In this document: piece after piece, positions 503-46,360 of the stretch
Numbering within the stretch: position 1 is the first letter of the stretch
How the letters are laid out: each line of letters begins with the position of its first letter
Assembly: GCF_963921235.1 (NCBI RefSeq)
Contig: NC_086108.1
Span: 82,524,001 to 82,588,000, forward strand
Length of the DNA stretch: 64,000 nt
From: Mobula hypostoma
Lineage: Eukaryota
Reading direction: 5' to 3'
The notes under the pieces: model-generated
What the model was told of the DNA's origin: nothing
Database searches by the model: none
The model's input: only the letters and a program-made list of their open reading frames with translations
Position numbers and translations under genes: made by a program

Positions 503-2539
503 TGTTGATATAATTGCAGCCAGAAGTGCAAGGTGAGACATTAGTAGTGAAGCGTATGAGGTTTCATGTTTCAGTCTTTGTTTCACTTTGGAACATTCCC
601 TTAAAAGTAAGAGCATCCTTTGATTATTATCTGTGTGTTTATACAAGCTATTTCATTTTCTTTCAACGACAGAATCTCTGGGTTGAACGTTACTTATTTT
701 CAGGTGATACCTGGCTCATCTTTGCTTGGGTACTCAATTATTGTTAATATTACCCTTATTACCCTTCCCTGAGATGGTTTAGGAATGAAGAGATTGCAAG
801 AATTGTGTGTTAGCAATTGCAAACCAAATGACAGGGAGATTGGTGATTAGAAAATCATGGCTCTGCTGATGTGCCTGATACAACAGACCTAAAGAACTGA
901 TCTTGATGTGCCCTGGTATAAATAACATTTTGGACCCTTATTCTCTCTCCTCACCTTGCTAACAGTCAAGAGAGTTTTATGCCATACTAGTTTTCAGTTT
1001 TCAAGGAAGGAAGCCTGAGTTAATTTGGAATTTACCATTTTTTTCAGCAATTCAGATTCTTAAATGCTTTATAGTCCTTTTGGGAGAGCAATGTGAAATC
1101 TTGCATGTTTTTTCCTCCAAAGAGAACAATATTGTTCTCAGATACACAGCATATTTCAATGTTTTAGTTACATTAAGAGCAGAGAAATATCATCTGTGGT
1201 TTAGAGTTAAAAGATCAAATATTAGTTTGTTTTTTACTCTGACTTCTTAAAATCTATTGGTGTAAAATTTGTGGTAATATTGAAAAGCTTTTCAGTGCAC
1301 TTCGGTACATGTAAACAATTCACCAACTTACCAATTTATTGAGAGTACTGCATGATTTAATTTTTTGGCTCATGTGAGTGGATTGAGAGTCAAAATATAG
1401 TGAGTTTTAGACTTTTATTTGCGATAGTTCAGCTTCTATTTTAATCCTTATTTAATTCTCTGTGACGTGTTTAAAATTTTTAGCTAAGACCAGTGCCTTT
1501 TTATGGCTGGTTTGCACCTTGCGCTTTTTCTTCAGTTTGACTGGCGATTTTGTCGGTTGGATGCTGATGATCTGACTGCACTGAGGCCTGACAAGAACCA
1601 GACCGAAGCAACAACTGACTGTGGCATTCAGGCCATGAGAAGATGGTGATGGGCTTCGCTTTTTGGTGGGTTGCAGTCACTGCACGGATGATACAGCAGA
1701 AACAAAACAAAAATAATGAGGTTTATTTTTGTAGCAAGCAAGAGTCACAGTAGTAAAGATCACTGAATGGCTTGGGCTTGACAGATCAAATTCATCTGGA
1801 ATATCAGTCAGGGAAATGAAGTTGAAGTCAAAGAGCAGGTCAGTCATGATGTCTCTTAATGGTAGGGTAGACTGAATGGCCAAACGTGGCTGACTGCAGT
1901 CTCAGTTTCTTGTGCTCCAGTCTATACCTTACCTATGACACTAAAGCATCTTACATCTTGCTTAACCTGTTTCAGAGACCCTGCTCCCAGTGTAGGTTGA
2001 ATACAGGGAAAGACGTGTCTACACCCATAATGCTGGAATTATTCAGAGGTGAAAATAAACCACTGTGGGCAGCAACAGCATGCTGGTAAGAACTGGCTGA
2101 CATCTGTTTGAGATACGACTGGGTGCATAAGAAACTTATACAGCTTTATCCTTGGCATTTAGTTCACAATTGATGGTGTAAGGTTATCAGACTGAAACAG
2201 CGCATTAGCCCTAATAATCTATGGTGACACTTAATCCCCACTGGCTCTTTCACCTGTCCTTCTTTGTCTAAAAGATTGTGAAATTGTTTTGTTATACTGT
2301 ACCCTGTTTCCAATGCTTGACATTGGCGCTGTGTACACAAAAGGGGGAATACTGGATATCTCAAAGTTGTGCAATTATTTTTATGAGAATATGTTCTTCC
2401 TTTGTTTATTTTAGGCTTTATTCTGAACCATTTTGAAAACTATGATCCTTCAAGATTATTATTAAACTATTTAATTTGTTTGAGTCTCCCTTCAAGTGTT
2501 GTCACACTGAACGTTTCCAAGGAGATGACGATTTCAAGG

Positions 2540-5271
2540 AACATGGTAACATAGAAAATAGATGCAGGAGTAGGCCATTCGGCCCTTTGAGCCTGCACCG
2601 CCATTTATTATGATCATGGCTGATCATCCAACTCAGAACCCTGCACCAGCCTTCCCTCCATACCCCCTGATCCCCGTAGCCACAAGGGCCATATCTAACT
2701 CCCTCTTAAATATAGCCAATGAACTGGCCTCAACTGTTTCCTGTGGCAGAGAATTCCACAGATTCACCACTCTGTGTGAAGAAGTTTTTCCTAATCTCGG
2801 TCCCAAAAGGCTTCTCCTTTAACCTCAAACTGTGACCCCTCGTTCTGGACTTCCCCAACATCGGGAACAATCTTCCTGCATCCAGCCTGTCCAATCCCTT
2901 TAGGATTTTATACGTTTCAATCAGATCCCCCCTCAATCTTCTAAATTCCAACGAGTACAAGCTCAGTTCATCCAGTCTTTCTTCATATGAAAGTCCTGCC
3001 ATCCCAGGAATCAATCTGGTGAACCTTCTTTGTACTCCCTCTATGGCAAGGATGTCTTTCCTCAGATTAGGGGACCAAAACTGCACACAATACTCCAGGT
3101 GTGGTCTCACCAAGGCCTTGTACAACTGCAGTAGTACCTCCCTCCTCCTGTACTCAAATCCTCTCGCTATAAATGCCAGCATACCATTCGTCCTTTTCAC
3201 CGCCTGCTGTACCTGCATGCCCACTTTCAATGACTGGTGTATAATGACACCCAGGTCTCGTTGCACCTCCCCTTTTCCTAATCGGCCACCATTCAGATAA
3301 TAATCTGTTTTCCTATTTTTGCCACCAAAGTGGATAACTTCACATTTATCCACATTAAATTGCATCTGCCATGAATTTGCCCACTCACCCAACCTATCCA
3401 AGTCACCCTGCATCCTCTTAGCATCCTCCTCACAGCTAACACTGCCGCCCAGCTTCGTGTCATCCGCAAACTTGGAGATGCTGCATTTAATTCCCTCATC
3501 CAAGTCATTAATATATATTGTAAACAACTGGGGTCCCAGCACTGAGCCTTGCGGTACCCCACTAGTCACTGCCTGCCATTCTGAAAAGGTCCCGTTTATT
3601 CCCACTCTTTGCTTCCTGTCTGCTAACCAATTCTCTATCCACATCAATACCTTACCCCCAATACCGTGTGCTTTAAGTTTGCACACTAATCTCCTGTGTG
3701 GGACCCTGTCAAAAGCCTTTTGAAAATCCAAATATACCACATCCACTGGTTCTCCCCTATCCTTTCTACTAGTTACATCCTCAAAAAATTCTATGAGATT
3801 CGTCAGACATGATTTTCCTTTCACAAATCCATGCTGACTTTGTCCGATAATTTCACCGCCTTCCAAATGTGCTGTTATCACATCTTTGATAACTGACTCC
3901 AGCAGTTTCCCCACCGCCGACGTTAGGCTAACCGGTCTATAATTCCCCGGTTTCTCTCTCCGTCCTTTTTTAAAAAGTGGGGTTACATTAGCCACCCTCC
4001 AATCCTCAGGAACTAGTCCAGAATCTAACGAGTTTTGAAAAATTATCACTAATGCATCCACTATTTCTTGGGCTACTTCCTTAAGCACTCTGGGATGCAG
4101 ACCATCTGGCCCTGGGGATTTATCTGCCTTCAATCCCTTCAATTTACCCAACACCACTTCCCTACTAACATGTAATTCGCTCAGTTCCTCCATCTCACTG
4201 GACCCTCTGTCCCCTACTATTTCTGGAAGATTATTTATGTCCTCCTTAGTGAAGACAGAACCAAAGTAATTATTCAATTGGTCTGCCATGTCCTTGCTCC
4301 CCATAATCAACTCACCTGTTTCCGTCTGTAGGGGACCTACATTTGTCTTTACCAGTCTTTTCCTTTTTACATATCTATAAAAGCTTTTACAGTCAGTTTT
4401 TATGTTTCCTGCCAGTTTTCTCTCAATCTTTTTTCCCCTTCCTAATTAAGTCCTTTGTCCTCCTCTGCTGAACTTTGAATTTCTCCCAGTCCTCAGGTGA
4501 GCCACTTTTTCTGGCTAATTTGTATGCTTCTTCTTTGGAATTGATACTATCCCTAATTTCTTTTGTCAGCCACGGGTGCACTACCTTCCTTGATTTATTC
4601 TTTTGCCAAACTGGGATGAACAATTGTTGTAGTTCATCCATGCAATCCTTAAATGCTTGCCATTGCATATCCACCGTTAATCCTTTAAGTGTCTTTTGCC
4701 AGTCTATCTTAGCTAATTCACGTCTCATACCTTCAAAGTTACCCCACTTTAAGTTCAGAACCTTTGTTTCTGAATTAACTATGTCACTCTCCATCTTAAT
4801 GAAGAATTCCACCATATTATGGTCACTCTTACCCAAGGGTCCTCACACGACAAGATTGCTAATTAATCCTTCCTCATTGCTCAAAACCCAGTCCAGAATA
4901 GCCTGCTCTCTAGTTGGTTCCTCGACATGTTGGTTCAAAAAACCATCCCGCATACATTCCAAGAAATCCTCTTCCTCAGCACCTTTACCAATTTGGTTCA
5001 CCCAATCTACATGTAGATTGAAGTTACCCATTATAACTGCTGTTCCTTTATTGCACACATTTCTAATTTCCTGTTTAATACCATCTCCGACCTCACTACT
5101 ACTGTTAGGTGGCCTGTACACAACTCCCACCAGCGTTTTCTGCCCCTTAGTGTTACGCAGCTCTACCCATATCGATTCCACATCTTCCCGGCTTATGTCC
5201 TTCCTTTCTATTGCGTTAATCTCATCCTTAACCAGCAACGCCACCCCACCTCCTTTTCTTTCATGTCTATC
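2540..5271 (-). mobile_element. CR1-clade LINE, 5'-truncated, young but inactivated (partial APE endonuclease, RT, 3' UTR)
   Basis: ORF pieces 4843-5292 (GGGVALL, VVYRPP, MGNFNL, ILDWVL), 4423-4836 (SDHN) and 2730-4310 (KSPGPDG, NYRPVSL, DFQKAFD, GVPQGSVLGP, KFADDT). The 3' UTR ends in a TTCTATGT-type tail near 2540-2560. Confidence 0.97.
2730..5271 (-). pseudogene. CR1 ORF2 (endonuclease-reverse transcriptase) pseudogene
   Basis: Three visible lesions: an in-frame TGA at 4843-4845, a frameshift near 4425 (KGKKD*, with RKLAGNIKTDCKSFYRY resuming in another frame), and a frameshift near 2770 (FTQSGES instead of FTQRVVNLWNSLPQ). Confidence 0.93.
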
Positions 5272-6264
5272 ACTTTTTAAGGAGTGTATCAAATGTGCCT
5301 TAATTTATCAAACAAACACATATATTAGAAACAAAATGATAAAGGAGAAAGGTACTGCCAAGCTGGTGATGAGGTATTAAGGGGAAATAACAATTCATTT
5401 TTTAAAATTTTAAATTAAAAAATTCAGCAGATGCTGGAATTCTAAAATAAAATACTAGAAATGCTCAACAGGTAAAGCAGCATCTGAGGAAAGAAAATCT
5501 GAAGTCATTTTTGTGTTGGAGATCTTTAGTTGGAGCTGAAAATTTGGCTGTGAATGTCTCTCCTAGGGTCAGAAGTTTCTTGTTATCACATTTTAAGTTT
5601 TCTGTATTCTCCGTACAAAAATATTACACACAGCAATATGAAGTTCTACCATTTAATGTCCCCCTTTAAGTTCTGAAGTGCCTTTTATCAAAATAATCAA
5701 GGCAGTTTATTTCAGAACAATGGATTCATGACCTTAGTATTCACCAGAAGTTTTTTTTACGTCCACTGATTAGTGAGTTGTGGCTGGGACATAGTAAACA
5801 TGATTGTCTGTGTGCACAACACAATCTCTCAACAACAATGCAATGAATGGTTAATTAGGTTATTGCTCACATTGAAAAACATTGCAATGTGAGGGCTCAG
5901 AGAACACTTCAAAAAGATTAAAAAAAGCTACCAAATTTTCAAGAAGCACTGCAATGTCATCAAATAGCGACGCTGCTGTAATTTTTTGATCTTATTGGCA
6001 AAGGTTCAGTGTGCAATCAGCAAGTTAAAGGTACAAGTTATAAATGCAGCCAGAAATTATCGTTAATCTTTTTCATACTTTTATTTCTTCATTTTACCCA
6101 TTATTCATTATTTACTCAAAACACCACCGACTTCAAAATATTAGTCTCAACCCCTTACCACTCAGGTTATTTCCCATTTAATTCAATTATTACATGGAGC
6201 TGCTTTAATAGAATTGATTCCCCTCTTATCTTAGACTGAAATGGGAAGGTTGTTTTACGAGGAG

Positions 6265-36095: not shown

Positions 36096-37260
36096 TAAAC
36101 TTGCTGATTCATTGTGCTAATCAAAAAACTTAAATCATATATCCTTAGTGTAACATTGTCTGACTTCATGCTGGTTGTTCCTCCTGTAAATCTATTCCTT
36201 GGTACTGATTTTCAACATATATAAACTATAATGTGTTTGTTGACTGAGAGGAGCAACAAGTGAGGCCAAGAGTTAATTCTGAGAATGTGAGTGTGACCAG
36301 AAAACGTGTGTGATGAACTATTTCCACTGATTTATGGACATTCATGATTGAAGGTCAGAGGAGAAATTACCGAAGAAATCATTGTTTCCTTGCTGAATTA
36401 TAATTTGGTAGGTTAATTGGTTATTGTAAGTCATCCCATGATTAGGTTATGATTAAATCGAGGCAGGGGGGGCGGGGTTGTTAGATGGCTGGCCTTGAAA
36501 GCCTGAAAGGGCCTATTCCACACTGCATCTCAATGAATGAATGAATAAATAAACAAACAAACAAACAAATATATAAATTTGAGAGCTCTAAGGAAGAGTA
36601 GTCTCAGTCTCAGTCCATTTGATATGAACCCACTGGAGCTCGGCCCATCTAACTGGCCCCATCATTTAATAGCTTGATGGCTGACATGATTGAAAGCTCA
36701 GCTTGGCATAGTTGCCTATATTGGCTGGGGTATTGAGTATAAAATTTGGGAAGACATGGTGCAGATCAAATTCAAGTTTAAGTTCAATTGTCATTTAGCC
36801 TTACACATGTATACAGCTAAATAAAACATTATTCCTCTGGGACCAAGGTATAAAACACAGTACATACAGTCACACACAACACACAGCACATATATTTATG
36901 ATAGCACATACAGTTACAATATGTCCTGAGTGGCATCAAGATTGATGGTGCATGGGATGCTGTTCTGGAGCCACATTTCTGCAAGAACAAGCATGCAACA
37001 GTTTCTCATCTCATTTAGGGTTAGTCGCAGATGAAGGCTTGTCTTCCAGGGAGCAAGTACTGGAGACGGGACATCTTGCTAGTAGGGGCCAGCTTCCAAC
37101 TCACCAAGGATTCCGGAGCATCTGAGGATCTTCTGGTCCTTTCCACACTGTCTCTGGCACCTCTTCCCCTGGGTGCCTGCAAAAGGTGATGCAGTGACAT
37201 GAGGGCCTTGAGGGTCAGGTCCATGCAACAACAAAGGCCATATAAACTTAATGTCCTGGA

Positions 37261-38440
37261 TGTTGAGTATTTATTATATCAGTAATATTAAGTAATATTG
37301 TAATTATATTGACTGATTAATCATTCTTTATTGCTTAAATAACTCATTATGGTTATATGTATGAAGTACATGAATAGCATACAGCAGGGGTCCTCAACTC
37401 TTTTTTGCAACGCAGACTGGTTTAATATTGACGATATTCTTGCACACCGGCCAACCTGGTGGTGGGGTGGGGTAGGGTTACTAACGGATAAGAGTAACAG
37501 CCAAGTACATTGTACTTACCCCAAGAAAGACTACAATGACCATGAAGCCTTGCGCGGGCACCAGTGCGCATGCGTGTACGTGCCGATTTTTTTCCACAAA
37601 TCGTTTTTGACAATTCTGTTCGGGGCGGGGTGTGGGGTGTTAAACACGACCGGAATATAGGTGATAAGTGGCTAATACACTCAATTTTGTTCCTAAAAGG
37701 GTTTCTGTAACAAATTTAATATTAAACACACAGCGCATATTTTCCTCGCATGAATATAGTGATAAGTCAATTATCAGGGGAGGACAGCGGAGCTTGAAGT
37801 AAGTGTTGAATGAACTTCTAGTAGAAGTGGTAGAGGCAGGTTCGATATTATCATTTAAAGAAAAATTGGATAGCTATATGGACAGGAAAGGAATGGAGGG
37901 TTATGGGCTGAGTGCAGGTCGGTGGGACTAGGTGAGAGTAGCGTTCGGCACGGACTAGAAGGGCTGAGATTGCCTGTTTCCATGCTGTAATTGTTATATG
38001 GTTATACAAGTCACTTATAAGTCAATAGCATCATAACATTTTAAGTAACGTTTGAATATTGAACACACAGCACATATTCTCCCTGTATGAACATATAAAA
38101 TTATTGCGACACACCAATACCGTTGAATCAGTGGGAGCCCTAGGCTGAATACTTGCTTCCCTGCAACAAGACACTGCCATCGAAGGGTGATGGGAGACAG
38201 TGATACTCGAAGGGGGTTCCGTTTGTCCAGTGTATTCTGCAATTTAGTTTTCGTTGCATTCATTGCAGAGATATGTTGGAAATGGAAGCTTTGCAGCCTG
38301 GTGGTTGGGGAAGGCTGGCATACAGCAACACACCACCACGTTATATGTGCGCACCTTTCTTAAAGTTAAAGCAAAGTTGGACTCACATTCCCTGTTTTCC
38401 TTTCAATTAATTTTTTGTTTTGGACTTACAAAACATAACA
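37261..38440 (+). repeat. 5' LTR (interrupted by a hAT element)
   Basis: TGTTGAGTA...CATAACA. With 37385-38325 removed it aligns with 42392-42638. Confidence 0.88.
37385..38317. mobile_element. Non-autonomous hAT-type DNA transposon with an embedded CR1 3' end
   Basis: Perfect 8-bp TSD GCATACAG (37377-37384, 38318-38325); ends CAGGGGTCCTCAAC and GTTGGGGAAGGCTG; CR1 tail at about 37795-38005. Confidence 0.88.
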
Positions 38441-38441
38441 G

Positions 38442-38453
38442 TGGTGATGAGGA
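38442..38453 (+). other. Primer-binding site, probably tRNA-Ser(GCU), CpG-decayed
   Basis: TGGTGATGAGGA 1 nt after the LTR; equals TGGCGACGAGGA with two CpG-to-TpG changes. Confidence 0.7.
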
Positions 38454-38887
38454 AATGTTTTAAACAAATCTGAGATGACTACCTACTTGTTGAAGTGTAG
38501 TGAGACGTTCAAGTTTAGAAGAAGTGCAGTGAGAAGCAGTTGAGTAAAAAAAACATAGCACGCGGTTCTTTGGGAATGGACAGAGACTGTTGAGTTGAAA
38601 GATGGCAGAAAATTGAAAAATTCATGAATTCATAAAAAGTGATTACCAGCTGATAATGGCTAGCTATATTGGAAAGATTGTTGCATTCAGTTGCACAAAA
38701 GATAACTGGATTTTGTATACTAAACAAATTTAGCAGTATTTTAAAGCAAATGGAATAGTAAATTAGAAACAAGTACCAGTTTTGCTGAGTGCATTGGGTG
38801 GAAAAGCATACAGTTTGTTTCAAAGTTTAACTGCTCCAACTAAACCAGCTGAAATGAGCTTTGTTGATATCGTGAAAGTAATGTAGA

Positions 38888-40072
38888 TGTCATGGTCCGG
38901 TCCGTGAAGTCGTATTCTGGTTCACGGTCTGGTCCATCAACCATTGCTCCAGGTTTTCCTGTCTACGCTGTTTCTGTTCTTGTTGAGCTCTAATTGAGGC
39001 AGCTGATGCTCGTTGGGGCTGGCTGCATAAATACCTTCAGAGATCAGGGTGTGGCTGCTGGATTGTTCTTGTCCTTACTCCTTGTATCCCTTCCTCTGCC
39101 TTCTGTTTCCTCGCCTGAAGCCTTGCCTTGTCTTGCCAGTAACGCTCGCCTCGCCTGAATTTCTCTTTTTGCCTTGCATTGCCTGAAGCCTTGCCTGGTC
39201 TTGCTGGTAATTCTTGCCTCATCTCGTCTTCAGTCTTGTCCTGGAGCCACACCATACCTAGCTCCCTTCCTGTCCCTTGCCTCCATCAGATAAGCCAGGC
39301 CGTATTGCCGTTACCTGCGGTTGGTTCTGTCCCTTCCTGTCCCTTGCCTCCCTTGGGTGGAGATCTGCGCCCTGCCCAGGAGTACTGTGCCCTACCCAGG
39401 AGGAGATTCCAGTCTCCTGCCTCCAGCCTCCAGCCTCGCCTCGCCTCAAGTCTCCTGCCTCCAGCCTCCATCCTCACCTCGCCTCAAGTCTCCTGCATCC
39501 AGCCTCCTGCCAAGCTTTGCCTCAAGTCTCTAGCATCTAGCCTCTAGCCTCAAGCTTGAAGACTCCAGCCTCATGCCTCCTGCCAAGCCTCACCTCAAGT
39601 CGCTAGCCTCTAGCCTCAAGCCTGAAGACTCCAGCCTCCTGCCTTCTGCCAAGCCTCTCCTCTAGTCTCTAGCCTCAAGCCTGAAAACTCCAGCCTCCTG
39701 CCTCCTGCCAAGCCTCGCCTCTAGTCTCTAGCCTCAAGCCTGAAGACTCCAGCCTCCTGCCTCCTGCCAAGCCTTGCCTCTAGTCTCTAGCCTCAAGCCT
39801 GAAGACTCCAGCCTCATCCTGCCTGCCAGCCAAGCCTCATCCTTGCCTAGTTCTGGGGTCCGAGCCAGAGGCAAGACCTAGGTACTGGGTCCTTTTCCAG
39901 TCTCTGGCTCGGAGTCCAAGCCCAGGCTCCTAGCTCTCTTGTCTAGCCCTGTTCCAGCTTCCTGGTTTTCGTGTCCATGTCCTTGCCCTCACCCTGTATC
40001 CTCGTCCTGTCCCTAGTACTTCAGTGTCTGGGTCTTGCACTTGGGTCCATTCCCAGCTACCGTCCTATGACA
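38888..40072 (+). mobile_element. Solo LTR of a second LTR family inserted in gag
   Basis: Termini TGTCAT...ATGACA; flanks GTAGA and GTAGG; TATA-like CATAAATA near 39026; gag continues across it. Confidence 0.85.
39410..39845. repeat. 59-bp minisatellite built from GCCTCNN heptamers
   Basis: AGCCTCAAGC recurs at 39546, 39612, 39671, 39730 and 39789 (spacings 66, 59, 59, 59). Confidence 0.92.
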
Positions 40073-41145
40073 GTAGGAACATTTATAATTGAAACCATTG
40101 TAGATTCCAGAATGCCTTAGGTTTAGTAAGTGGAATCAAAAGGAAGAGGAGTCTATTTCAGTGTATGTGGCTGGATTAAAGACATTACCTGAGCCTTGTC
40201 AGTTATGTAATGGGCTTAATGATGCACTGAGAGATCATATAGGGTGTGGAATCTTACAAGAAAGCCTTCAAATACGGCTCCTAACTGAAGCACAGCTTAC
40301 ATTTAAAAGAGCAGTAGAAGCTGCTGTATCAATGGAAACAGCAACCAGTGACACAATTGAATTGACCCTGCAATGAATCTAGATTAATCAGCAATGAAAG
40401 TGAGTATGAACAAAATTGCACTGTCTACGCTGAAACTGGCTCGGCTGACCAAATTCTGTTACCGTTGTGACAGCGGCTCACATACACCCCTGTTGATGAA
40501 CGCCTTTAAAATGCCGGTTTAAAGGCAAAACTTGCAAAAAATACAACAAATTAGGACACATGCAAAAGACTATGTTGGGCAAATAAAAATAAATGGACTG
40601 CACAGGAAATTGAAAAGGATAAAAAGTCAATTTGCGGTTTCAAAATGAGCACTAATCTGTATGCTGTTGATGAAAAATCTGATAATGATGAGAGTGACAC
40701 AGGATGGAGTAGCCTTGAGATTTACAATGTGAAAACTAACAATAGACAAGCAATATGGCTTACAGCAGAAGTGAATAGCAAATTAATTTAAATTGAATTG
40801 GACACTGGCTCAGCTGTTTCGGTCGTTCCACAAAATTAGGTTGAATAGCATTTCAAAGATATTAAATGGAAACTTACAGATATCCAACTAAGCACTTATA
40901 CTGGAGAAAAGGTAACTCCTGTGGGAATGACATTTGTAACAGTGAAATAGAACAACCAACAAACCACTTTGGGATTGTATTTGGTCAAAACAAGAGGGCT
41001 AGCATTGCGATAGCATGATTGCCTGAGATAATGATAACTTGATTGGAGATCCAGACACCATTAGCATGCCATATCCCCTCTAGGTGATGCCAAAACTGTT
41101 TCCATGCTGTCCACCATGAACATTTGCACAACAAAGGGCAAGCTG

Positions 41146-42165
41146 ATGTTGGTGTCAACCTCAAACAAAAGAAATTCTGCAGATGCTGGAAATCCAAGCA
41201 ATACACACAAAATGCTGGAGAAACTCAGCAGGCCAGGCAGAACGGATCCTGATGAAGAGTCTCGGCCCAAAATGTGACTGTTTACTCTTTTCCATTGATG
41301 CTGCCTGGCCTGCTGAGTTCCTCTAGCATTTGGTGTCATCCTTTGTGCCACTGGTTGGAAAGCATATTGGACCTAGCATATGACTGTTCAGAGTGATCAT
41401 GTAACTAAGAAAGCAGTGATCCGGCTATAACAGGTTTTATAGGCAACATATCCAAGAAAACTTCTGATATGTAACTTGCAGAAACTTGCGAAATGTGGTT
41501 TCATTTCAAGGTGGAAGAGAGTTCAGGGAGGTTCTGGAAAGTTGCAAACGTTTGGCTTTTGTGTGTATAAAGAACTAGAATCTACTCTGCATGTATTAGC
41601 GGGAGACAAAAAGCTGCTTGTAAACCATAAATGCAAAGACCAAAGCCCAGCTGGATGAATGGAAGGCTATAAAGAAAGTCAACAGAGATCTGAAAACAGA
41701 GGATTTGTCAGGTGATGTTGTGGATGAGAAGACTGAGAGGAGAAATCAGACTGTAATGGGAGCCATAGAAGAATTAATAAGAGGATACTCCAGTGAACTA
41801 AATGCACCTTCCCAAGATCAAGATACACAAACTAGAAAAAGAAAAATGGAAAAGAAAGAGGAGGATGACATAAATGCTCTGGAAATGGAAGAGGATAAAC
41901 GAGATCTAATTTCTCAGGAAATTAGCAAATTCAGAGATACTCACAAGAAACTAGAAGAAAAAGAAAGGTGGGAAAAAGAAAGGCAAGAATTTGAAAAGGC
42001 AAGTAGAGGTAGAGACAAAGAATGTGAACGAGGAAGATAATGGCATGAAAAAGAGAAGGAACATGAGAAAGAAAAAGAGAGATAAAGAGAGAGGAAGGAG
42101 CCGAGACCAGGAGAAAAACAAGGATCAAAGTAGATCCAGAGAGAAAAACTGAGAAAAAGAGACGA
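41146..42165 (+). pseudogene. RBM25: Processed (intronless) RBM25 fragment: RRM plus start of the RE/RD-rich region
   Basis: Translates with lesions to MLVSTFVPLVGKHIG...FIGNISKKTSDM...LAKCGFISRWKRVQGGSGKLQTFGFCVYKELESTL...KKLLV..NAKTKAQLDEWKA...GAIEELIRGYSSELNAPSQ...DINALEMEEDKRDLISQEISKFRDTHKKLEE...NKDQSRSREK, collinear with vertebrate RBM25 as I recall it. Confidence 0.93.
41162..41329. mobile_element. Fold-back mini Penelope derivative with 13-bp TSD, inserted in the RBM25 fragment
   Basis: TTGGTGTCA(A/T)CCT at 41149-41161 and 41330-41342; hammerhead-like CTGATGAAGAGTCTCGGCCCAAAATGTGACTG at 41249-41280. Confidence 0.82.
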
Positions 42166-42391
42166 ATGGTGTCCAGAGCTGTTAGAACCACTTCTTGCAG
42201 TCTCAGAATCAACTTTACACCCACCACAGAGGAGGCCTAGAAGCTGAGATTGTTTTCACAGCCACAAATCTCACCGGCCAAGCAGAGGGACCTTCCTTGT
42301 CAGGAATATGTTAAATCTTTAGTCCTCAACTTATATATAAGTTGAGATGCATTCTATATTGAGGTGGTGTTTATAGCTAAGCAGGGTGGGG

Positions 42392-42638
42392 TATTGTGTA
42401 ACTAATATTTCAGTAATATTTGAGTAATTTTGTAAATATATTGTTTCATTGAGCATTCTTTGTTGTTTAATCAATTCATTATGGTTATATGTACAAAGTA
42501 TGTGAATGGCATACGTCATCATGCCAGCCTGTCATATACTCGCCCCTTGCTTAAAGTGAAAACAAAGTTAGACTCCCATTCTGGACTCTGTGTTTTCCTT
42601 TCAATTAATTTTATGTTTTGGAATTACAAAACATAACA
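42392..42638 (+). repeat. 3' LTR preceded by polypurine tract
   Basis: AAGCAGGGTGGGG (42379-42391), then an LTR homologous to the 5' LTR. Confidence 0.88.
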
Positions 42639-42744
42639 TTGGACTTACAATATTTTGTATTATTAGAGTCTAACAGGGTCTTATGATCACTAAAAGAAGA
42701 CAAGCATTTGCACAATTTGTTGGACCTGGAGAGGCCGCTGTGAC

Positions 42745-44380: not shown

Positions 44381-45689
44381 GATCAGTCTGAGAGTTTCCA
44401 TGTTTAGTGCATCATTGTCATAATCCTATTACTACGAGTTGCAACTTTCCTGGCTGGGGAGTCTAGAATTAGGAGTTAGCATCTCAGGATATGAGATCAA
44501 TCCCACTGGGGATGGAAGTGAATAAACAAACTCTTCATTTAGACACTAATGAAACCTGGAAATTCTTCATGGTTATTTGTTTAATAAAAAATTTTAGACA
44601 CTAAAGCAAACAAGGGATCTGTGAATTGTAAATGAAACAGGAACTTAGTCATGGTCTTATTTAATGGCAGAAACAGGCTCAAAGGGCCAAATGGCAACAA
44701 TGACTCCTGTTCTTTACACATTTATTATGCCACCCAGGTGCACGTTAAGATGTCTGGGTTGATATGGCTTCCTTCCACTTTCCAAAGAGGTACAGGTTAA
44801 ATCCCGGCTTCCAGTGCTGCCCGTGCTGAGTCTTCACATTCTCCCCATGAGTTTCCTTTGGGTGATTTCACTTCTGCCTATATCCCAAAGACGTATGGCC
44901 ATTCTAAATTGCCACTAGTGCAGTAGGAATCTGGAAGGGAGTTGATGGGATGTGTGAAGAATAGAATAGGGTTGATAAAGATGAGTGCCTAATGTCCAGC
45001 ATGGATACCGTGGGCTGAATGGCCTGTCCATTCTATGAGAATCTATGAATTGTTCACAAACTAATGTTGGTCTAGAAAGTTATTTTGCGTTTACAAACAG
45101 AAAGTTGGGTTAACTACCAGTGTTGCTAAAAGCCACGTTAAGTTCTACAAGCATGCATGCTATCTTTCAGATTGGATACACACTTCATTTTTCTCCCACA
45201 GAAACTCACTGATAAGAAATTTGATCATTGAAAATTACTTCTCCTAAAGCTTCAGTTTGACCTTGTTTCTATTAAACAGGTTCATCCTAACGTCAAACAT
45301 TCATGGCCTTGTTTTAAGGCTCTGTTTATGGTTTAATGGTTCACCTGACTGCATTCCCCAGCATGTGCCATGCCTTCTTCCCTGATGGGGTAAAGTCCAA
45401 GTACTTACGAATAATGAGAACAAAATAAACAGACACAGGAATGAACCATTCAACCTCTTGCCACTCAATAAATTCTTTAACCACAATGCCACCTTCCAGC
45501 ACCCATCTTTATCTCGAATACAGTCAATGACTGAGCATCCATGGTCCTCTTAGATAGGCAGTTCCAAAGACTCCCTATTTTCCATCCATCAGTATTTCTT
45601 CTTATCACAGTCTCAGTGGTCAGCACGTTATTTGAGATGATGACTTAGTTTTACATACCCTGCAATGGGAAACATTATTTTTGCGCTAA

Positions 45690-46360
45690 GCACAAGAGAT
45701 TCTGCAGATGCCGGAAAGCTTGAACAACACTCACAAGCTGATGGAGCAACTCAGCAAGTCAGGCAGCATCTAGAGAGGGGGATAAACAATTGACACTTTG
45801 TTCAGCACCTTCATTGTCTGCTGCAAATGCAGGATCTACTGCTGGCTACCCATTTCAATTCGACTTCCCATTCCCATTCTGACATGTCTGCCCTTGGCCC
45901 CTTGTACTGCCATGATGAGGTCAAAGTCAGGTTGGAGGAGCAACACCTCAATTTCCGTCTGGGTAACCTCCAACATGATGGCATGATTATCGATTTTTCC
46001 AACTTTCAGTAATTTCTCTCCCTCCCTCCTTCTCTCTTTTCCCATTCCCCTTTTTGGTTACCCTCTTCTCCTCACTTGTCCAACACTTCACTCTAGTTCC
46101 CATTCTCCTTTCCTTTCTTCTCTGATCCATTGTCCTCAGTTTCCTGCTTCTTCATTCCTTTATGTCTTCCATCTATCCCCTCTCAGCCTCTTGCTTCATC
46201 CCCCACCCTCACACACCTACCTTCCCCTTCACCTGCCAAATTGTATTCTTTCCCCTTCCCCCACCTTCTTATTCTAGCTTCTGCCCCCTTCCTTTCCGGT
46301 CCAGGCGACTGTTTATTGCCTTCCATAAGTGCTGCCTGACTAGATGAGTTCCTCTGGGAT
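45690..46360 (+). mobile_element. Penelope-like 3' fragment with inverted 5' terminal block
   Basis: ORF 45827-46012 gives LATHFNSTSHSHSDMSALGPLYCHDEVKVRLEEQHLNFRLGNLQHDGMIIDFSNF. The hammerhead core is deleted at 46297-46311. Confidence 0.85.

Follow-up and report, generated by a model that had tools for sequence, protein, structure and literature searches.

How did a piece of the host gene RBM25 come to lie where the replication enzymes of a Gypsy LTR retrotransposon belong, and did it travel further from there? The question is raised by positions 37261-42638 of the window, the 64,000-nucleotide stretch of Mobula hypostoma DNA analysed here, which hold a decayed Gypsy LTR retrotransposon derivative carrying a spliced RBM25 piece. 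Our answer, to which we assign a probability of about 0.85, is that the element is a dead member of a non-autonomous Gypsy family that carries a fragment of spliced RBM25 mRNA in place of RT, RNase H and most of integrase; a single origin of the family through two template switches is likely, as is its copying in trans. The element runs in the order LTR, tRNA-Ser primer-binding site (PBS), gag, protease, spliced RBM25, integrase tail, polypurine tract (PPT), LTR. Its parts are given below; tblastn matches are to P0121, a full Gypsy polyprotein, with which parent copies are co-linear and on which Pfam finds the parent domain order PR-RT-RH-IN.

37256..37260, + strand: left target-site duplication (TSD) CTGGA, 4/5 match to the right flank
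37261..38440, + strand: 5' LTR with TG...CA ends, interrupted by a later insertion; only two parts alignable to the 3' LTR, 98/124 and 95/115 identical
37385..38317, no strand: later insertion in the 5' LTR, CAG...CTG ends, flanked by the 8-nt duplication GCATACAG
38442..38453, + strand: PBS for tRNA-Ser(GCT), two CpG-type transitions off a perfect match
38656..38887, + strand: 5' part of gag (broken), P0121 aa 1-76, 51%
38888..40072, no strand: nested element from another family with TGTCAT...ATGACA ends, flanked by a 5-nt duplication (4/5)
40073..41087, + strand: remainder of gag, aspartic protease and linker (broken), P0121 aa 79-228 and 249-387
41088..42167, + strand: spliced sense-strand RBM25 fragment including the RRM, 8/8 exon junctions joined
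41088..41094, + strand: 5' switch point, where a 7-nt microhomology lies; the window copy has one base of it mutated
41162..41329, no strand: later insertion in the RBM25 piece: a short, very abundant element that has inverted arms and is flanked by a 13-nt duplication (12/13)
42159..42167, + strand: 3' switch point, where a 9-nt purine microhomology lies; the window copy has two bases of it mutated
42168..42378, + strand: C-terminal tail of Gypsy integrase, with the 3' untranslated part, co-linear with parents L108 and L111
42379..42391, + strand: PPT, directly 5' of the 3' LTR
42392..42638, + strand: 3' LTR, 247 nt, starting TA in the window copy
42639..42643, + strand: right TSD TTGGA, 4/5 match to the left flank

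Apart from the TA start of the window 3' LTR, both LTRs have TG...CA ends, and the element has a PBS complementary to a tRNA 3' end and a PPT before the 3' LTR. The PBS of copy L118 has the perfect 12-nt tRNA-Ser(GCT) complement, and tRNA-Ser(gct) genes matching the PBS are present in the same genome. The flanks lend a TSD modest support: in nine other copies they match on average at 3.1/5 positions, with at least 4 in 3/9, against a mean of 1.0/4 in 4-nt registers. The insertion in the 5' LTR is presumably hAT-like; the nested element, which contains internal tandem repeats, is likely a solo LTR. The protease is marked by a DTGS motif near 40805 (Pfam places the domain at P0121 285-370), and the stretch from gag to linker has about 40 nt less in the window copy than in other copies. 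Pfam gave nothing useful on four ORF fragments of the window. RT, RNase H and integrase of P0121 find no sense-strand match in the window element even at E<=10. Downstream of RBM25, the tail and 3' LTR are co-linear with the integrase-bearing L111 (371/468) and L108 (382/464). The earlier note's order of parts holds, as do its enzyme core missing where RBM25 sits and its tail of the same Gypsy family; the flanks it had called TSD-like agree at 4/5 positions.

We identified the insert as RBM25 by protein search (best E 6e-37) and by matching it to the host gene, to which it is 85.3% identical over 896 aligned nt. It runs from the final 10 nt of one exon through seven whole exons into the first 28 nt of the next, and all nine host exons involved are bounded by AG/GT. 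The earlier note had recognised an intronless sense-strand RBM25 piece of about 0.85 kb at 41146-42165 with a later insertion inside it. Identity, orientation, splicing and insertion hold, and the limits change: the piece begins at 41088, a 10-nt exon end and a 48-nt exon having been missed, and ends at about 42167. Some 0.9 kb can be aligned out of 1,072 nt captured, and near 42081 about 140 nt are deleted in the window copy. A complete RRM lies within captured nt 169-388. The 48-nt exon is missing from the bony-fish RBM25 proteins compared; the copies preserve an old spliced isoform that contains it. Only one PWI-encoding RBM25 locus was found in the genome, so it is only the internal piece that was amplified; other candidates from the PWI family search were rejected, their sequences not matching RBM25.

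A double template switch, as the earlier note had proposed, is supported by microhomology at both joins. At the 5' join TGCCACA is common to the host gene and to the RT-bearing parents L071, L077, L079, L084, L086 and L094, and parent and RBM25 are in the same codon phase. At the 3' join, located as claimed in purine-rich sequence, GAGAAGAAA is common to the host and to three parent extensions (L106, L108, L111); L110 has a near match, the remaining extensions lack the site or have deletions, and the codon phase differs. Between the two joins the open reading frame jumps from about P0121 aa 407 to a point after the integrase RRHxDQL motif. Composition gives the 3' microhomology a chance of 1e-4, an estimate that is too optimistic because the match lies in purine-rich sequence. 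Against template switching, the exact 3' microhomology occurs in just 3/21 parent extensions, and DNA-level recombination with cDNA could give a similar chimera.

The same joins recur in hundreds of copies. An exact 18-mer across the 5' junction has 247 chimeric matches versus 618 parent-type matches, and controls have none; amplification as a non-autonomous family, suggested by the earlier note, is borne out by these copies, which share their joins on many contigs. We estimate about 1,700 chimeras (730-5,900), likely over a thousand. When 40 of 3,022 candidates were scored, RBM25-type matches were found at 39 other loci (72-79% identity), and in 20 of those loci fetched wider, gag-pro lies upstream in 19/20 and the tail downstream in 19/20. 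Of the loci picked by protease, 7/29 are chimeric, and the chimera makes up 24-29% of the Gypsy family. Its gag-pro differs from that of the parent in 2 of 1,187 columns.

Chimeras occur in several lengths. Among 40 junction-picked copies, 18 are a short form that has lost the repetitive RE-rich half and kept the RRM, and 4 are intermediate. Deletions common to at least four copies all fall after captured nt 588, and no deletion in gag-pro or the RRM half is common to more than three. The RE-rich half has 202 8-mer repeat pairs per kb, versus 7-13 elsewhere. Thirteen copies share one RE-region deletion; that it is fixed in the family was rejected, as there are several other endpoints and some copies keep more. 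Exact 22-mers across the 3' join number 30 short and 51 long, counts that are not comparable because A-runs vary in the short join. Some long copies, the window copy included, have short-form letters at captured nt 591-594; simple recombination between short and long forms is unsupported, as 0/5 scorable copies have the short-form marker at nt 23.

The copies decayed neutrally and stand about 10% from their source. Private N/S over 70 copies is 1.19 for transitions and 1.08 for transversions, and the copies have diverged by 9.9% at 0-fold and by 8.7% at 4-fold sites. The captured frame shows no purifying selection, a result that holds for inserted copies and not for the brief replicating phase. 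LTR-LTR K is about 0.24. The element is decayed, as the earlier note had it. At 19/207 degenerate sites and 1/354 non-degenerate sites the host letter is not the one commonest among the copies; synonymous differences between host and copies number 29. At the single non-degenerate difference P0123, a shark protein, has the residue of the copies, so the piece need not have spent long in the element before the burst. A slight excess at host 4-fold sites, which is not significant (11/79, P=0.09), would allow a brief phase in the element alone. Capture and burst appear to lie close together in time. In one sequencing run, presumably of RNA and represented by contigs only, high-depth contigs carry host-type letters and contigs of the family are low-depth, a pattern that speaks neither for nor against expression of the family.

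We considered whether the captured domain served the element. An in-frame Gag-protease-RBM25 polyprotein may have been translated, its RRM helping the chimera to package or process RNA or to evade silencing, and this would have let a single capture grow to a quarter of the family, with stepwise loss of an RE-rich half that was dispensable. Codon phase is maintained at the 5' join, the entire RRM lies inside the captured piece, and gag-pro needs no frameshift because a single frame of copy L051 aligns with P0121 aa 4-404; the sparing of gag-pro and the RRM half by the shared deletions and the large share of the family also fit. However, a join falls in phase by chance one time in three, the deletion pattern tracks repeat density, and nt 1-588 contain only two subfamily-marking substitutions, both amino-acid changing. 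Copies are star-like, with a distance of 0.19 within and between forms, and therefore have almost no internal branch to show selection. Protein searches, which are weak tests, did not find the fusion protein. Of the Gag-Pro-RBM25 fusion that the earlier note had thought possible, the codon phase at the 5' join is as far as the guess holds; that such a product aided spread is possible but unsupported, and we think it improbable.

A still less probable origin, already disfavoured, is a LINE-made processed pseudogene of RBM25 that inserted in a Gypsy element, after which deletions removed pol and the ends of the retrocopy and the product transposed. The genome does have LINE/SINE-type insertions with long duplications, one of them inside the RBM25 piece, and deletions at short repeats are common in the family. 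Yet the piece is an internal, intronless partial mRNA copy that lacks the RBM25 3' end, and no poly-A or TSD flanking it was found in the window, in agreement with the earlier note; two extra deletions would be required, each ending at a Gypsy-RBM25 microhomology, and capture and burst are apparently close in time. An assembly artefact or local rearrangement, in whose favour no evidence was found, is refuted by the 247 exact junction copies, by another organism's contigs over the RBM25 part of the window copy (4 differences/251 nt and 7/341 nt) and by a contig of a further organism that spans the 3' LTR into the flank.

Capture by template switching would have begun with an RBM25 mRNA co-packaged in a Gypsy particle. 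Reverse transcriptase may have jumped to it within the 9-nt purine microhomology and returned to the Gypsy template within the 7-nt one, and the chimera would then have been mobilised in trans by the parent family's enzymes. RT may have slipped from one direct repeat to another within the RE-rich half, giving deletion forms that were then copied in their turn. Most likely the RBM25 piece was carried along as neutral filler in a short RNA that retains every cis signal (LTRs, PBS, PPT) and gag-pro. Neutrality alone does not explain how a single event reached a quarter of the family.

With the parent, the donor, both switch points and the deletion series in one genome, the case documents cleanly both template switching and the shrinking of a non-autonomous family as it spreads. 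Annotation of these genomes, and the mapping of reads to them, can be misled by the RBM25-like pseudo-exons, which likely number more than a thousand. A host RNA-binding domain would have been co-opted by a transposon if the RRM did serve the element. Among the literature matches listed, none by title concerns RBM25 retrocopies or RBM25 in retrotransposons, and those for RBM25 in shark are unrelated; the family may already be held in subscription papers, repeat databases or supplements, outside the scope of that search.

Acutely transforming retroviruses carry a captured oncogene as an in-frame gag fusion to spliced host cDNA that replaces pol, and depend on a helper. Gypsy-RBM25 shares the in-frame gag fusion, the spliced host cDNA in place of pol and, probably, the dependence on a helper, but it is a Gypsy element without env, was amplified in the germ line and shows no sign of selection on its captured gene. 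TR-GAG elements of plants, as described in the part of Chaparro et al. 2015 (PMC4350172) compared, resemble it in being under 4 kb, in having LTRs and gag without RT or integrase, and in being mobile; unlike them, with gag as sole ORF between the LTRs, Gypsy-RBM25 has kept its protease, carries host cDNA and lives in a vertebrate. Maize Bs1, in the portions of PMC5131818 and PMC13317346 compared, is likewise an LTR element with host gene segments and common switch points, with 1-5 copies, three donor genes and reported transcription and translation, whereas Gypsy-RBM25 has one donor, far more copies and no sign of function. The closest likeness is to the LTR-mediated retroposition chimeras of animals, whose mechanism was published by Tan et al. 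2016 (PMC5131818). In the cases set out in the sections of that paper compared, some of the internal ORF has given way to an incomplete spliced mRNA and both LTRs are kept, microsimilarity is present at both joins (median 6 bp; here 7 and 9 nt) and poly-A and TSD are absent; secondary retroposition with shared joins and a recurrent switch site in BLASTOPIA are also described. No cartilaginous fish is among those cases, and the secondarily copied ones have few insertion sites, in contrast to 247 exact-junction copies, likely over a thousand, making up about a quarter of the parent family, divided into deletion subfamilies, old and dead. The capture mechanism is known (Tan et al. 2016); what is unusual in this vertebrate capture is its scale, about a thousandfold beyond the published cases compared, and its stepwise shrinking.

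We find that the decayed Gypsy element in the window carries host RBM25 mRNA in place of RT, RNase H and most of integrase, as the earlier note had proposed. The LTR-LTR alignment and the flanks define the element, and three later insertions each have their own duplication:

37261-42638, plus strand: Gypsy element with LTRs
37385-38317: later insertion
38888-40072: later insertion
41162-41329: later insertion

The two LTRs are identical at 98/124 and 95/115 positions (K2P 0.25 and 0.20), and the flanks read CTGGA on the left and TTGGA on the right. P0121, a full polyprotein with its domains in Gypsy order (protease, RT, RNase H, integrase), matches the element at aa 1-76, 79-228 and 249-387, and its RT, RNase H and integrase have no sense-strand match in the window at E<=10. 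The PBS is a perfect tRNA-Ser(gct) complement minus two transitions. Copy L118 has a perfect 12-nt complement, and tRNA genes of this type were found in the same genome.

The first insertion, which we take to be hAT-like, has an 8-nt duplication and apparently contains another repeat fragment near 37800-37990. The second, a nested element of 1,185 nt, has TG...CA termini and contains pyrimidine-rich tandem repeats; it is likely a solo LTR from a different family, and related sequence is also present in locus L019. The third, a short element with inverted arms, recurs near 45688-45788 and 46307-46360. It is extremely abundant, its contig depths in three other organisms each summing to more than a million, and many copies appear as head-to-head halves within host introns.

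An ORF at 41624-42037 matches RBM25 proteins. Searching with the PWI end identified one host RBM25 locus, on contig G000:C1 (L060) near 99.8 Mb (99,832,600), minus strand; the PWI-domain loci L021-L023 on C76 and C2 do not match RBM25. All 9/9 host exons used have AG/GT bounds, and one of them matches the shark protein P0123 at 98% identity, which points to a cartilaginous fish as the likely host. The captured interval spans 1,072 nt: it opens with the final 10 nt of one exon, runs through seven exons and stops 28 nt into the following one. Alignment to the host exons shows that 8/8 host exon junctions are crossed and joined in the window copy, and across 70 copies junctions are mostly ungapped where covered (range 18/28 to 61/61). 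The window piece shares 85.3% identity with the host across 896 nt. The spliced capture suggested earlier therefore stands, with its start moved from 41146 to 41088. The second captured exon, 48 nt in frame and upstream of the RRM in the host gene, is likely a cassette exon; its peptide is present in P0123 and had no motif match among 120 fetched RBM25 proteins, mostly from bony fish.

A DNA search with the protease linker yielded 29 new loci, of which 22 run on into RT (parents) and 7 into RBM25. At the 5' join, TGCCACA is common to the host mRNA and to parents L071, L077, L079, L084, L086 and L094, among others, after which the sequences diverge. At the 3' join, GAGAAGAAA is common to the host and 3/21 parent extensions (L106, L108, L111); L110 comes close, and in the remaining extensions the site is missing or deletions are present. 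Microhomology thus lies at both joins, in agreement with the double template switch postulated earlier. From the tail through the 3' LTR, the window copy matches L111 at 371/468 positions and L108 at 382/464, confirming that the region after RBM25 belongs to the same Gypsy family. The suggested Gag-Pro-RBM25 fusion holds as far as codon phase at the 5' join, where parent and host both read Ala-Thr in the same phase; at the 3' join, the host and integrase-tail frames differ. In parents L102 and L103, an internal deletion begins within integrase (about P0121 aa 993) and ends at the purine site of the RBM25 3' join, which suggests that this site is a template-switch hot spot; their deletion form may be a second non-autonomous derivative.

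The chimera proved to be an amplified non-autonomous family, as anticipated. Exact 18-mer counts were 247 chimeric and 618 parent-type, with 0 for reversed controls. A search with the RBM25 part produced 3,022 candidates at first look; among 40 scored, 39 other loci match at 72-79%. In twenty of these loci taken at 10 kb, gag-pro lies upstream in 19 and the tail downstream in 19. The chimeric 18-mer is retained in 4/27 copies not selected on it, giving an estimate of ~1,700 chimeras (95% range 730-5,900), which may be low since the 27 copies were top hits. The chimeric share of the family is 29% from the 18-mer counts and 24% (7/29) from the sample. In contigs from three studies, covering organisms B, C and E, summed depth, which is no copy number, was 9,573-30,902 over RBM25 bins 41607-41844 and 0-17 in the last flank bins. 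Organism B contigs cover the window copy at about 98%, and one organism E contig crosses from the 3' LTR to the flanking DNA with 31 differences over 364 nt, indicating that the window insertion is older than the splits from those organisms. Chimeric copies L006 and L014 have a second family member within about 1-2.5 kb, nested or tandem, with gag-pro rearranged. In L049 (4183-4872), an RT-RNase H fragment, probably from another element, lies inside the gag of a chimeric copy.

Deletion forms were classed by eye in a sample of 40 drawn from the 247 exact-junction loci: the first 20 listed for C1, plus the first 20 for C12 and C18 together. In 18/40, the short form, RBM25 ends near captured nt 590-620 and is joined to the tail. 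The other 22 comprise 4 intermediate, 7 retaining more later exons, 1 with a different large deletion, 1 ambiguous and 9 insertion-cut or truncated; the window copy is of the long form. Two substitutions distinguish short and intermediate forms from the long form (17/23 vs 2/23; 16/22 vs 3/22), indicating that the shorter forms replicated as such. The long-form window copy, L006, L039, L040, L048 and L050 carry short-form letters at captured nt 591-594 (in the window copy near 41828, with the 41928-41937 region also noted) and keep the downstream exons.

Deletions common to at least 4 copies all lie after captured nt 588: 588-707 (4), 716-760 (5) and 834-978 (13). This placement, the intact RRM and the codon phase fit the main rival explanation, that an in-frame RRM aided the element. 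We consider it improbable: the placement is accounted for by 8-mer direct repeats (202 per kb after nt 588, 7 in the RRM half, 13 in gag-pro), both form-marking substitutions are amino-acid replacements, and the tree is star-like and offers no branch on which to test selection.

Decay after insertion is neutral. Copies differ from the commonest letter at 9.9% of 0-fold, 10.1% of 2/3-fold and 8.7% of 4-fold sites, with private N/S ratios of 1.19 and 1.08. LTR-LTR divergence, a relative, rate-free measure, had a mean K2P of 0.24 (range 0.17-0.32) among the 12 loci, out of 60, that have two nearly full-length LTRs. Most copies carry 29 synonymous and 3 replacement differences from the present host gene, two of the latter at the short-form join and the third at a position where P0123 agrees with the copies. 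The host differs at 19/207 degenerate sites, similar to a single copy, so these differences are likely host-lineage changes, and the burst likely followed soon after the capture. Chimera and parent gag-pro differ in 2 of 1,187 columns.

The observed anatomy, joins, counts and decay are best read, with a probability of about 85%, as a double template switch followed by mobilisation in trans and slippage-derived shorter forms. Drawing on established LTR biology for co-packaging, switching direction and trans-mobilisation, RBM25 mRNA would have been packaged together with parent RNA. During minus-strand synthesis, RT would leave the element at the purine match, copy 1,072 nt of mRNA and re-enter at the 7-nt match, leaving a product that still had LTRs, PBS, PPT and gag-pro. 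Parent RT and integrase could then mobilise it, and slippage in the RE-rich repeats could produce shorter forms that were themselves copied.

Literature searches, which covered papers outside repeat databases and supplements, found none on an RBM25-bearing Gypsy family. Transcription aside, every structural feature of LTR-mediated retrocopies, as described in the portions of Tan et al. 2016 (PMC5131818) considered here, is present in the chimera. The secondarily copied cases in those portions are far smaller than the RBM25 family, and maize Bs1, at 1-5 copies (PMC5131818, PMC13317346), is likewise far less numerous. The RBM25 chimera is an LTR-mediated gene capture of known type, and a new and unusually large case of it.
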